Shown: positions 31,206 through 34,844 of the stretch, one piece after another | Layout: each line of letters begins with the position of its first letter | How positions within the stretch are numbered: position 1 is the first letter of the stretch | DNA from: Pasteurellaceae bacterium | GTDB lineage: Bacteria > Pseudomonadota > Gammaproteobacteria > Enterobacterales > Pasteurellaceae | Assembly: GCA_030528525.1 (NCBI GenBank) | Contig: JAUMYT010000004.1 | Coordinates: forward strand, 68,407 to 132,406 | Length of the DNA stretch: 64,000 bases | Direction: 5' to 3' | Program-made: the position numbers and the translations under genes | Notes under the pieces: generated by a model | The model's input: only the letters and a program-made list of their open reading frames with translations | The model's database searches: none | Told to the model about the DNA's origin: nothing

Positions 31206-32438
31206 ATGACAACAAAAGTTTCTCTTGATAAATCCAAAATCAAATTCGTCCTACTTGAAGGCGTGCACCAAAACGCCCTTGATGCCCTAAAAGCCGCAGG
31301 CTATACCAATATCGACTTCTACAAAAAAGCGTTAGACGGTCAGGAATTGGTCGAGGCGATCAAAGATGCCCACTTTGTCGGCATTCGTTCCCGCACTTTT
31401 TTAACCGAAGAAGTACTGGCACAAGCCCCGAAACTCATCGCCATCGGCTGTTTCTGTATCGGCACTAACCAAGTGGATCTGGAAGCTGCTAAACGCCGTG
31501 GGATTCCTGTGTTCAACGCCCCGTTCTCCAACACTCGCTCGGTGGCGGAATTGGTCTTGGGCGAAATTTTGTTATTGATGCGTCAAGTGCCCACAGCAAA
31601 TGCAGAAGTTCACCGTGGCATTTGGAATAAATCCGCCACAGGCTGTAACGAAGTGCGTGGCAAAAATCTTGGGATTATCGGCTACGGACATATCGGTTCG
31701 CAATTGAGCATTTTGGCGGAAGCCATTGGTATGCGAGTCTATTTCTACGACATCGAAAACAAATTGCCACTAGGTAACGCTCAACAAGTTGCTAGCCTTG
31801 ATGAATTATTGGCGTTCAGCGATGCCGTTTCATTGCACGTGCCTGAAAATCCATCGACCAAAAATTTATTAAATGCCAGCAATCTGTCGAAAGTGAAAAA
31901 AGATGCGGTGATCATCAATGCGGCTCGTGGCACGGTGGTGGATATTGATGCGTTGGTCGATGTGTTGAAATCAGGGCATATTCGTGGGGCAGCGTTAGAC
32001 GTGTTCCCTGAAGAGCCGGCGTCCATCAACGATCCATTTGTTTCGCCATTAACCGCATTTGACAACGTGATTTTAACCCCGCACATTGGCGGATCGACCT
32101 CCGAAGCACAGGCGAATATCGGCTCGGAAGTGGCAAATAAATTCGTGAAATATTCCGACAACGGCTCCACACTCTCTGCGGTAAACTTCCCAGAAGTTTC
32201 CCTACCAGAACACAGCGGCACCAAGCGTTTGTTACACATTCACACCAACAAACCAGGTATTTTGAACAAAATCAACCAAGTGTTCGTGGATTTAGAGGTA
32301 AACATCGCCGCCCAATACTTACAAACCGACCCAACCATTGGTTATGTGGTGATTGATGTCGAATCAGAAAATACTGACGAAGCATTAAAACGTTTGAAAG
32401 CGATTGATGGCACCATCCGCAGCCGTGTGTTGTATTAG
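31206..32438 (+). CDS. serA: D-3-phosphoglycerate dehydrogenase
   Basis: 410 aa; NAD-binding GIIGYGHIGSQ; C-terminal ACT domain. Confidence 0.9.
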   Translation: MTTKVSLDKSKIKFVLLEGVHQNALDALKAAGYTNIDFYKKALDGQELVEAIKDAHFVGIRSRTFLTEEVLAQAPKLIAIGCFCIGTNQVDLEAAKRRGIPVFNAPFSNTRSVAELVLGEILLLMRQVPTANAEVHRGIWNKSATGCNEVRGKNLGIIGYGHIGSQLSILAEAIGMRVYFYDIENKLPLGNAQQVASLDELLAFSDAVSLHVPENPSTKNLLNASNLSKVKKDAVIINAARGTVVDIDALVDVLKSGHIRGAALDVFPEEPASINDPFVSPLTAFDNVILTPHIGGSTSEAQANIGSEVANKFVKYSDNGSTLSAVNFPEVSLPEHSGTKRLLHIHTNKPGILNKINQVFVDLEVNIAAQYLQTDPTIGYVVIDVESENTDEALKRLKAIDGTIRSRVLY

Positions 32439-32507
32439 GGCTTAAGCAATTCTATTGTTAGATAGAACACAATAGTATTGCTTTGATTTTAACCATTTTT
32501 GAATGGA

Positions 32508-32540
32508 AAAAGGCACTTGTTATATGCAAGTGCCTGTTTG
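32508..32540. terminator. Bidirectional hairpin between serA and island gene
   Basis: aaaaaGGCACTTGttatatgCAAGTGCCtgttt: 8-bp stem flanked by A-run and T-run. Confidence 0.5.
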
Positions 32541-32545
32541 AATCA

Positions 32546-33277
32546 TTAAATGAATTTAATACAATCTAACTCTTCTAGATAAATCTTATATAACTCCATA
32601 AATATCTTATCAATAAGAATCAATAGTGAGAACCATATAAAATAATTCTCATACGGATAATCTTCTTTTACTAGTGTATTCAATGATGGTAAGTTCTGCT
32701 GATAAGATCTTGTATTGTGAGCAATTCTATTTCTATTTTTATAGAAACTATCTTCATACTGTTGTTTTAAGTGTTCACCTAGAATATTCTTACAATCAAT
32801 CGCAAAGTAAGATTCCTTAATTGTTTTCCAATAATCTAAATAGGTTGTATAGCCTCTTTGAGACCAATAATAAAAAAGGCTATTCTCGACAGTATTACTG
32901 ATATTGCTATAAGATAATATCTCCTTTTTTAGTTTATTAAAGGTGTTTACAAAATCAAAATTAGGTGATGTTATTTTAATTTGTTCTATAAGGAATTTAT
33001 ATACATCATTTTTATCCTTATACTGTGAGCAACCAGATTTAGACAGGTTGTTATTTAAGAATGTATATCTAAAATTATGGTTGTTGTTTGCCATTTCCCA
33101 TAGGATACATTTTATTTTCTGTTCTTGTGCTCCAGCCATTTTAATAAGAATAGACTGCAGTATATAATCTGATAAGGGATGGGTTTCAATGCCATGTTTT
33201 ATATTTTTAACCGATGATACTCCCTCATTCAGGATATCTGAAACAGGGGATAATATAAATTTAATATTTTGGTTCAT
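32546..33277 (-). CDS. Hypothetical protein with HEPN-like Rx4H motif (RNRIAHN), possible Abi_2/AbiD-like; in low-GC island
   Basis: 243 aa ORF, about 25-30% GC by hand count on samples; motif ...YKNRNRIAHNTRSY...; 17-nt overlap with upstream DUF262 gene. Confidence 0.6.
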   Translation of the reverse strand: MNQNIKFILSPVSDILNEGVSSVKNIKHGIETHPLSDYILQSILIKMAGAQEQKIKCILWEMANNNHNFRYTFLNNNLSKSGCSQYKDKNDVYKFLIEQIKITSPNFDFVNTFNKLKKEILSYSNISNTVENSLFYYWSQRGYTTYLDYWKTIKESYFAIDCKNILGEHLKQQYEDSFYKNRNRIAHNTRSYQQNLPSLNTLVKEDYPYENYFIWFSLLILIDKIFMELYKIYLEELDCIKFI

Positions 33278-34487
33278 TTAAATACTCCCCATAAATTTCA
33301 ATTGATCGACTAATTCTCTTTCTAAGGTGTGTAAGCCCATTGGGTGAACGACTATGGCGTTCATCATTTTTCATGTCATTAATACAATTTTCTATTTCGT
33401 TTCTTATTTCATAATTTTTATCATAGTTGATAGAGCAACCATCAAGTAAAATATAATATATAGCCCCAAACAAATACATATCTAAATCAATTATTGATTT
33501 GAATTCTTTATTATCTGCTAACAAAGTAGAAAGATAATTTTTTAAAGCGGACATTCGGATTATATGATTGTTATTTTCGATTAATGGCAGAGAATCTCCA
33601 AATTTACTATGTTCTTTCTCTGATTCTTCATTTTGCTCTGAGCAGCAAGAGATCACAGAATATATATACTCTTCGTAGTATTTCTCCATTTGAGATTTTT
33701 GACCTCTAGCAACCTTTTTAATATCATTACAATATTTATATTCGGATAACAACGACAAATATCGAATAAAGTCCGCTTTGCTTGGGTTACCATTAATGGT
33801 TAACTTATATTCTTTAGTAAATTCTGGATCAAAAAATGGTTGTAAATCCTCAACTAAATAATAAAGAGAAGCCCTGCTTTCTTGTGGAAGTAAAGGTTTT
33901 CCTTGGATATTTATTTCTTTAAAAACAGAAGCATAATATTTTTGGTGTGCTTTTTGATCGTTATTATCTGGAACTAAATAGCAAAAGCCTAAATAATGCT
34001 TGTCGAAAAAATCATCCTCTAGTTGTAATGATAATTCTTTATATTCTTTTCCTATCTTCGTGATAATTTGCTCTTTTGTTTTCCCTTTTTCCTGCAACAC
34101 CGCAAAACGCCATTCTAGGATATTATCGATCCTATCGTCAGGATCGTCATTTTCATCAATTGTACTGTCGTATAGTTCTATATTATCTGATGATTTCTTA
34201 AAACGTTCTTTATCAGGAAATATACCCAAATAAGCGAGTAAGATACTGGTAAGTCTTTGCTGACCGTCGATAATAAGATTGACATTTTCTCCAGATTCAT
34301 CTCTGAATGAGCCAATCGTGACAGGAGGGATAAAATGCTCTTTTCTAAAGGAGTTTATTAATGTGCTCACTTTGGGTTCATCCCATACAAAATATCGCTG
34401 ATATTTGGGTAATAATAAATTTTTTGATAAAATTAGATCGAGCCAATGTTTTAGAGAATATTCTCCATAATAAACTTTATTTCCCAT
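33261..34487 (-). CDS. DUF262 (ParB/Srx-like, GmrS-type N-terminal domain) protein without DUF1524 HNH domain; in low-GC island
   Basis: 408 aa; KYQRYFVWDEPKVSTLINS...NLIIDGQQRLTSILLAYLG matches the DUF262 DGQQR signature; C-terminal 170 aa unassigned. Confidence 0.7.
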   Translation of the reverse strand: MGNKVYYGEYSLKHWLDLILSKNLLLPKYQRYFVWDEPKVSTLINSFRKEHFIPPVTIGSFRDESGENVNLIIDGQQRLTSILLAYLGIFPDKERFKKSSDNIELYDSTIDENDDPDDRIDNILEWRFAVLQEKGKTKEQIITKIGKEYKELSLQLEDDFFDKHYLGFCYLVPDNNDQKAHQKYYASVFKEINIQGKPLLPQESRASLYYLVEDLQPFFDPEFTKEYKLTINGNPSKADFIRYLSLLSEYKYCNDIKKVARGQKSQMEKYYEEYIYSVISCCSEQNEESEKEHSKFGDSLPLIENNNHIIRMSALKNYLSTLLADNKEFKSIIDLDMYLFGAIYYILLDGCSINYDKNYEIRNEIENCINDMKNDERHSRSPNGLTHLRKRISRSIEIYGEYLNEPKY

Positions 34488-34744
34488 AAAATGCCTCTTG
34501 CACTGATGTTGTCATATTATGTTCTTCACTCACAATGAGAACTCTATTTTTTCATTACTTTCTCAACTCTATTATCCTCTAGTTTATTCCAACATGCTTT
34601 TCTCCATACTACTCTCTTTGGGAATTAAAGGTACACAGACGGCTAAAAGAGACACTATAGGTGCGACAGCATAGTGTTGAGCGAGTAGTGAATGGTGAAT
34701 TATTGTTTATAAAGCAAACAGTGACAACTTTCGGATTTTCAATT

Positions 34745-34760
34745 TGTGAGGCTGATCACA
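34745..34760. promoter_or_regulatory. Consensus CRP binding site
   Basis: aattTGTGAggctgaTCACAaatt: perfect TGTGA-N6-TCACA. Confidence 0.6.
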
Positions 34761-34788
34761 AATTAATATAGACTTAATTACGTGAAGA

Positions 34789-34822
34789 GGAAAAAAAATG
34801 GCTAGCCTTTTGGCTAGCCATT
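34789..34822 (-). terminator. Rho-independent terminator of dppA paralog
   Basis: Minus strand AATGGCTAGCC-aaaa-GGCTAGCCATT followed by TTTTTTTT. Confidence 0.75.
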
Positions 34823-34844
34823 TTCGTGCTATGAGAAGTTTGGA

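Follow-up and report, generated by a model that had tools for sequence, protein, structure and literature searches.

Within a 64,000-nucleotide stretch of a Pasteurellaceae genome (contig JAUMYT010000004.1, positions 68,407 to 132,406; hereafter the window), two adjacent minus-strand genes form a cassette that is probably a self-contained, horizontally acquired anti-phage module of the PD-T4-2 design, in which a DUF262 sensor would be paired with a HEPN RNase effector. Gene 1 (33261..34487, minus strand) encodes the DUF262 protein, protein 1, of 408 amino acids (aa), and gene 2 (32546..33277, minus strand) encodes the HEPN-like protein, protein 2, of 243 aa. The end of gene 1 overlaps the beginning of gene 2 by 17 nucleotides (nt; 33261..33277, minus strand), and the coding length of the cassette is 1942 bp. 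A first-pass annotation of the window had pointed out these two open reading frames (ORFs) and their overlap, both of which agree with the ORF list and the sequence, and had put the pair forward as an undescribed module corresponding to no named system. That last claim fails because PD-T4-2, listed as 'DUF262, HEPN' (PMC9519451), is an experimentally validated pair of this kind; operons joining ParB and HEPN genes had also been catalogued in 2013 (PMC3710099).

The cassette occupies a block of low G+C content (32440..34790, without strand) that extends from the stop of serA (32438) to the terminator of an SBP_bac_5 (dppA-like) gene. The G+C content of positions 32440-34800 is 0.303, compared with 0.455 ± 0.021 in all other 2361-nt segments of the 64 kb (z = -7.2), and the cassette block is the only 1-kb stretch of the window in which it falls below 0.36. 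At third codon positions (GC3), the two cassette genes have a G+C content of 0.25 and 0.26 compared with 0.50-0.56 in serA, the dppA-like gene, glmM and rpiA. From its G+C and GC3 the block looks horizontally acquired, as its striking AT-richness had already suggested in the first pass.

The two proteins of the cassette

Compared with Pfam, protein 1 matched GmrSD_N (DUF262; 1.4e-24, residues 21-209) and no other family. The motifs from which DUF262 had originally been recognised, KYQRYFVW and IIDGQQRLTSIL, are present in the translation, and the codons of DGQQR, the DUF262 nucleotide-binding motif (residues 74-78), are found at 34254..34268 on the minus strand. QR, DGQQR and FxxxN are all invariant across 38 protein 1 homologues. 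The C-terminus was tested for DUF1524 (His-Me finger, DHIYP-type motif, beta-beta-alpha fold) and none was found, in line with the first reading of the sequence. By its predicted domain content, protein 1 is a DUF262/ParB-type (ParB/Srx-fold) nucleoside triphosphatase (NTPase), with this domain at about residues 20-210, intact NTP-binding motifs and no nuclease domain, and we propose that it acts as sensor and regulator.

The C-terminal half of protein 1 is mostly helical. The best PADLOC model for the protein was NsnA of the Menshen system (9.3e-14), which aligned in one stretch between residues 17-403 and model positions 58-383 of 385; the BrxU-like HEC-05, HEC-06, SspE and PD-T4-2_A models matched the DUF262 core only, and the closest solved structures are those of BrxU and SspE. 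The C-terminal domain is best read as a ParBDB-type helical DNA-binding domain as in NsnA, a domain known from NsnA, DndB, GmrSD and SspE (PMC12065111). A separate protein 1-like gene on a metagenome contig (Ga0247611_10001252; locus L170, 3001-3393) matched the first ~100 residues only, with 66% identity. The 2.9 kb of DNA downstream of it held no protein 2 gene. It may be a remnant left by truncation; otherwise it is a variant with another C-terminus and another partner.

Protein 2 searched alone gave no match among the Pfam, PADLOC, NCBIfam or PHROG profiles. Its translation contains RNRIAHN, and the codons of RNRIAH (residues 182-187), the Rx4H motif of HEPN RNases, lie at 32717..32734 on the minus strand. 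In an alignment of 62 homologues, no variation is seen at R182, N183, A186, H187 and N188, which spell the canonical Rx4H motif RNxxAHN, or at G49, E52, Q53 and K54 in the first long helix. We scanned the 62 family members one by one against PADLOC and Pfam, and the affinities with AbiD and HEPN proteins were visible only at this family-wide level. The PADLOC AbiD model matched 20 of the 62 members (best 1.4e-6, or about 9e-5 after correction for 62 proteins) and Cas13a matched three. Below the Pfam thresholds there were matches to HEPN_MAE_28990 (three members), HEPN_RiboL-PSP (PF18735; one member at E 0.023) and Abi_2 (PF07751; one member), the best Abi_2 score being 13.8 bits compared with a gathering cut-off of 25.6. 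These alignments are collinear: residues 37-224 of one family member aligned with AbiD positions 69-239 of 277, and residues 39-204 of one with Abi_2 positions 43-180 of 184. The similarity to AbiD and Abi_2 therefore spans 170-190 residues, not the motif alone.

Protein 2 forms a single all-helical domain in which the conserved motif, of the Rx4-6H type that defines HEPN proteins, sits on a helix of a four-helix up-down bundle. A Foldseek search with the protein 2 model returned no significant match in the PDB, and profile searches with the protein 1 and protein 2 families found no relatives among PDB sequences. The earlier assignment of protein 2 to HEPN proteins with an Rx4H motif, in the Abi_2 lineage, agrees with the family-wide scan. 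On its sequence, protein 2 belongs to the HEPN domain proteins as a divergent member that no curated model covers and whose relation to Abi_2/AbiD is remote, and we propose it as a putative RNase effector. The invariance of Rx4H in 62 sequences argues for catalysis by protein 2, not a scaffold role.

Some protein 2 homologues (P0060-P0068, P0355, P0358, P0381 and P0458) have a length of 300-390 aa instead of ~245 aa. Their profile matches come in two pieces that overlap at model positions ~78-170, with a charged, coiled-coil-like insert between the two, for example ERKKWEKKVEDAREKQAKAIIEKREEE in P0060. The middle of protein 2 (poorly conserved residues ~100-165) therefore tolerates duplication or insertion, with the N-terminal and Rx4H helices fixed.

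Pairing, genomic context and alternative explanations

The distribution of the family was scanned with one genome per species, and the best 80 loci were examined for pairing. Relatives of protein 2 were found in 146 species. A protein 1-family gene lies directly upstream of the protein 2 gene in 76 of the 80 loci, or 76 of the 77 with upstream DNA; the four exceptions are three loci at contig ends and one decayed locus. From the side of protein 1, 13 family genes on viral and metagenome contigs had 600 nt or more of downstream sequence, and all 13 are followed by a protein 2 gene, compared with none of 116 more distant DUF262 genes. Exact-protein look-ups gave the same picture in five of five loci (Myroides, Bacteroides, Moraxella, Salinispirillum and Aliarcobacter), where an overlapping gene of ~245 aa comes after a GmrSD_N gene of ~390 aa and matches the profile of protein 2 (1e-99 to 1e-118). 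Thus the co-conservation raised as a check in the first pass was found from both sides, and the two families are exclusive partners that occur essentially only together.

The order of the genes, gene 1 then gene 2, is constant. A stop/start overlap of 4-23 nt is present in 62 of the 76 homologous pairs; with the overlap conserved across the family, the two genes are probably translationally coupled, as had been suggested from the window itself. No third gene is conserved in the 76 loci, in which the commonest neighbour family occurs five times and no methylase is conserved. An exhaustive profile search of 1.84 billion proteins recovered 507 clusters at 50% identity. Bacteroidota make up most of the hosts, the rest of which include Gammaproteobacteria, Campylobacterota, Desulfobulbus, Streptococcus, Lactococcus, Lachnospiraceae, Treponema, a cyanobacterium, Lentisphaerae and Ignavibacteria. 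Obligate pairing, the overlap, the lack of a third gene and the broad range of hosts together give the pattern of a mobile, self-sufficient two-gene module.

The decayed locus (L066, 3793-4518) comes from a metagenome-assembled genome of Flavobacteriaceae (JBAQZZ010000017.1) and is the sole locus with upstream DNA but no protein 1 gene. Its protein 2 ORF has lost the 5' end and with it the conserved N-terminus, and small unrelated ORFs and a 363-aa ORF lie upstream; the locus therefore looks like a decayed copy.

Elsewhere, the pair sometimes recurs beside known defence genes, some copies clearly lying in defence islands. In Moraxella osloensis (loci L003, L004 and L009), which carries the closest homologous pair (57% and 50% identity), it follows genes for an MmeI-type (type IIG) enzyme, a ResIII/DEAD helicase and a T5orf172/MUG113 protein, and in Aliarcobacter butzleri (L007) it is located between Pycsar (PycTM and cyclase) and two toxin-antitoxin pairs (HigB, RelB/YafQ). 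The pair adjoins AAA_13 and DUF3800 genes in Myroides, and in Bacteroides graminisolvens it forms part of a conjugative transposon that also carries integrase, PcfK and Tra genes. Among 138 immediate neighbours covered by a census were type I restriction-modification subunits, DRT3, SoFic, LmuB, pAgo, PD-T7-3, a type IIG enzyme and several PADLOC candidate families. Defence neighbours in some loci, together with the validated precedent of PD-T4-2, would support an anti-phage function of the cassette. The MmeI, ResIII and T5orf172 genes of Moraxella are co-oriented with the pair and separated by short gaps, and an insertion sequence (DDE_Tnp_1) lies downstream.

A number of results weigh against this function or against the PD-T4-2 design. 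The defence function of the family is read entirely from sequence, context and precedent, and the interaction between the two proteins, the trigger and the RNA target are all points that we infer. The PADLOC model PD-T4-2_A (PDLC04027) matched residues 26-83 of protein 1 only (3.3e-8, positions 55-109 of 363), and PD-T4-2_B matched none of the 62 protein 2 family members. In the window, the neighbours of the cassette are transporter and housekeeping genes only. The neighbour census likewise holds many housekeeping genes, and at many loci the neighbours are purely of this kind. No member of the family was found in 50,697 sequenced phage genomes (INPHARED), and in the plasmid collection it is effectively absent, the one match being an intergenic fragment in a 2.1-Mb Fusobacterium record.

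That fragment (Fusobacterium vincentii NZ_CP084075.1, 1964586-1964786; L092, 5001-5201) comprises 67 codons that share 45% identity with residues 170-238 of protein 2, its Rx4H region. No intact gene is present at this site between ORFs, the record is filed as 'plasmid', and the fragment is probably a pseudogene remnant. The complete pair is also present in three IMG/VR contigs classed as viral (3300012890_000039, 3300029390_000199 and 3300029482_000098; L093-L095), which may be prophages or misclassified islands.

How such a module might work can be outlined from characterised relatives. The DUF262 domain of SspE and BrxU binds or hydrolyses NTP and thereby switches the effector domain on after recognition of a DNA feature (PMC10952713; PMC12065111), and HEPN proteins are metal-independent RNases that work as dimers and stay off until triggered (bioRxiv 10.64898/2026.02.22.705581). 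In the mechanism that we propose, protein 2, the HEPN RNase, would be kept inactive in a complex with protein 1. Protein 1 would sense phage DNA, possibly in a modified form as for GmrSD, BrxU and SspE, by means of its DUF262 domain and its helical DNA-binding domain. Binding or hydrolysis of nucleotide at DGQQR would then bring about a change of conformation by which the HEPN dimer is released or assembled, and the dimer would cut RNA (tRNA, mRNA or rRNA), so that translation stops and the infection is aborted. We are much less confident of any one trigger or RNA target than of the overall reading as a defence module.

Of the alternatives, a toxin-antitoxin addiction module survives best but is unlikely. 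Here protein 2 would be a HEPN RNase toxin and protein 1 a mere antitoxin, and the pair would persist as selfish cargo or as a stabiliser of the surrounding DNA, with no dedicated phage sensing. A simple neutralising antitoxin would have no need of a 400-aa NTPase, let alone one whose catalytic motifs are invariant in 38 homologues. Protein 1 is a DUF262 protein and not a nucleotidyltransferase of the NTP_transf_2-type MNT family, the usual partner of HEPN toxins, which sets the pair apart from HEPN-MNT toxin-antitoxin systems, and its close analogues PD-T4-2, Menshen, SspE and BrxU are all defence systems. The toxin-antitoxin and abortive-infection readings are, however, not mutually exclusive.

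Less likely still, and rejected, is the reading of the cassette as a split type IV enzyme that targets DNA in a restriction-like manner. Protein 1 would then be the effector, acting as a ParB-fold nuclease or nickase on modified phage DNA, and protein 2 an accessory subunit, either non-catalytic or binding RNA. The 2013 survey of HEPN proteins does call the operon partners 'ParB nuclease' (PMC3710099), the solved structures nearest to protein 1 belong to type IV enzymes, and PD-T4-2 acts on T4, the DNA of which carries glucosyl-hydroxymethylcytosine. In characterised GmrSD-family enzymes, however, DUF262 serves as NTPase and sensor and cleavage needs the DUF1524 that protein 1 lacks, and the invariant Rx4H of protein 2 favours a catalytic over an accessory role. 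A degenerate Menshen, with NsnB and NsnC lost and NsnA left beside an unrelated neighbour, is very improbable and was rejected despite the full-length match to NsnA, since the pairing holds in 76 of 80 and 13 of 13 loci with no ABC-ATPase and no conserved third gene in the 76, the partner of protein 1 is always the same all-helical HEPN family and not an inPIN/Rossmann-like protein, and a remnant would not stay an intact pair across many phyla.

Flanks and expression signals of the locus

The genes on the two sides of the cassette are convergent, as first described. On one side, serA (plus strand) encodes a protein with 2-Hacid_dh and ACT domains, named phosphoglycerate dehydrogenase by NCBI. 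On the other, a minus-strand gene encodes a 531-aa SBP_bac_5 (dppA-like) solute-binding protein, beyond which lie DcuA/DcuB and Na+/H+ antiporter genes. The observation that the block has no tRNA flank held for 20-46 kb of the window, in which no tRNA was found. No meaningful direct or inverted repeats flank the cassette and there are no tandem repeats; an Rfam scan around the cassette gave no match, with no repeat array or RNA family nearby. Neither an RNA antitoxin nor mobile-element borders were found in these searches for repeats, Rfam families and tRNAs.

Both genes are preceded by Shine-Dalgarno sequences on the minus strand, namely AAGAGG (34494..34499), 6 nt before the ATG of protein 1, and GGGGAG (33285..33290), within the 3' end of gene 1 and 7 nt before the ATG of protein 2. 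The best promoter-like site upstream of protein 1 is TTGTCA-17-AATAAT (34699..34727, minus strand), with 10 of 12 consensus matches. The AT-rich block as a whole contains 18 promoter-like sites compared with 14.4 ± 4.2 in shuffled sequences, which is not above expectation. The promoter region ascribed to the cassette in the first-pass annotation has a candidate site, but because such matches are not enriched over shuffles a promoter is plausible rather than shown.

Terminators were identified at both ends of the operon, where four terminator-like hairpins were found compared with 0.9 ± 0.9 expected. The hairpin of the SBP_bac_5 gene (34794..34825, minus strand) has a 14-bp stem, in which 13-nt arms are 100% complementary, followed by a T-run; it is the upstream boundary of the cassette and insulates it against read-through. 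The intrinsic terminator of the operon itself (32511..32535, minus strand) begins 11 nt past the protein 2 stop and has a 9-bp stem, five pairs of which are GC, and a T-run. An AT-rich leader of ~300 nt (34488-34790) separates gene 1 from the dppA-like terminator; it is long for a simple promoter region and gave no Rfam match and no repeats.

Among the genomes compared, the nearest relatives by SerA identity (90-92%) are an otter Pasteurellaceae isolate, Frederiksenia canicola and Ursidibacter maritimus. All three keep the order glmM-rpiA-serA and have other genes after serA, with neither the cassette nor a dppA-like gene at this position. The genes found there (L089-L091) encode DUF2157/DUF4401/GDYXXLXY membrane proteins in the otter isolate and Frederiksenia, and a nitroreductase and glnA in Ursidibacter. 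In this group of Pasteurellaceae synteny thus breaks just after serA (window 32438-32545), at a site that may be a recurrent spot of insertion or rearrangement. Absence of the cassette from the relatives fits its acquisition at a variable spot; an empty serA-dppA junction, proposed as a check in the first pass, was only partly obtained, in that the cassette is missing after serA but the break in synteny precludes a clean demonstration of the empty site.

Comparison with known systems

A link between HEPN and ParB-fold genes has been described before. The 2013 survey (Anantharaman et al., PMC3710099) listed HEPN families 'in operon with ParB', with RiboL-PSP-HEPN distantly related to AbiF/AbiD, and the cassette resembles these operons in having a HEPN gene in operon with a ParB-fold gene. 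The MAE_28990 operons of that survey differ in that they carry a DNA methylase, none of which is conserved beside the cassette pair, and the protein 2 family stays below the thresholds of both the RiboL-PSP and MAE_28990 Pfam models. Protein 2 also has a remote collinear similarity, including the Rx4H helix, to the lactococcal AbiD, AbiD1 and AbiF proteins (Pfam Abi_2), with which it would share a presumed role as an abortive-infection RNase. Abi_2 proteins act singly or with RNA antitoxins (AbiF; bioRxiv 10.64898/2026.02.22.705581), whereas protein 2 is always accompanied by its DUF262 partner.

Similarly, protein 1 shares a DUF262 domain with QR, DGQQR and FxxxN with GmrSD, BrxU and SspE. 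These are, however, single polypeptides with a C-terminal DUF1524 His-Me DNase or nickase, whereas the effector of the cassette is a separate, putative RNase; the cassette is not one of these systems because it has no DUF1524. PD-T4-2, Menshen and Dazbog are grouped in reviews as DUF262 systems without DUF1524 (PMC10952713, PMC12065111). Dazbog does not apply because no DzbA or DzbB model was among the PADLOC matches of either protein or family. Menshen (NsnABC; Millman 2022; Li et al. 2025, PMC12065111) is closer, since protein 1 has the predicted architecture of NsnA, a ParB-DUF262 domain followed by a helical ParBDB-like domain, and the proposed logic of a DUF262 sensor and an RNase effector is shared. 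Menshen consists of three genes, in which NsnB is an ABC-ATPase transducer (AAA_15 and DUF3696) and NsnC combines an N-terminal inPIN (Rossmann-like) domain with a C-terminal toxin. The cassette has no third gene, and it is not Menshen because it lacks the NsnB ATPase and an inPIN effector, its own effector being a single-domain helical HEPN protein.

PD-T4-2 was the only named system of a DUF262 and a HEPN protein found in the literature. It comes from E. coli ECOR65, where two ORFs in 1540 bp are listed as 'DUF262, HEPN' (Vassallo 2022, PMC9519451), and it protects against T4 from a plasmid, a function also shown by deletion in the native strain (PMC9519451). Published HHpred results assign its first protein to DUF262 and DndB and its second to HEPN_RiboL-PSP (97.8%), HEPN_MAE_28990 (96.9%) and Abi_2 (46.5%) (PMC9519451). 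We compared the cassette with this system (RCO39066.1, contig QOYX01000002) by means of PADLOC profiles and the published HHpred table. In both, the two genes overlap or adjoin and their order is the same, a DUF262 protein that lacks DUF1524 being followed by a small stand-alone HEPN protein with Rx4H, and neither system has a methylase or an ATPase. Equally, the HHpred neighbours of PD-T4-2B are the Pfam families that the protein 2 family touches below threshold.

They differ in size (~345 and 165 aa in 1540 bp for PD-T4-2 compared with 408 and 243 aa in 1942 bp for the cassette), in the sensor, which is DndB-like beyond the core in PD-T4-2A and NsnA-like over the full length in protein 1, and in the best HEPN affinity, PD-T4-2B being nearest to RiboL-PSP and protein 2 to AbiD/Abi_2. 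Judged by sequence, the cassette appears to share the architecture and HEPN neighbourhood of PD-T4-2 but falls outside its profile models. We suggest, tentatively, that the pair could be an independently assembled defence family and not a PD-T4-2 orthologue, in which an NsnA sensor of the Menshen type would act on an AbiD-like HEPN RNase directly, without an ATPase transducer. If so, it would be in effect a minimal two-protein Menshen, a distinct candidate for a named system invisible to PADLOC and Pfam models and the simplest available model of a ParB-fold NTPase sensor gating an RNase.

If functional, the cassette would add to the DUF262-sensor class of defence a widespread family that present defence finders overlook, with ~500 clusters (50% identity) and at least 146 host species that range from Bacteroidota to Streptococcus, Treponema and Pasteurellaceae; protein 2, at present annotated 'hypothetical protein' everywhere, merits a profile model of its own. 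With two proteins and no ATPase, it would also be a compact system in which to study how NTP hydrolysis by DUF262 is coupled to activation of the effector, a step still to be resolved for Menshen, Dazbog and PD-T4-2. What is new is therefore the protein family; the two-gene design of a DUF262 sensor plus a HEPN RNase is already known from PD-T4-2.

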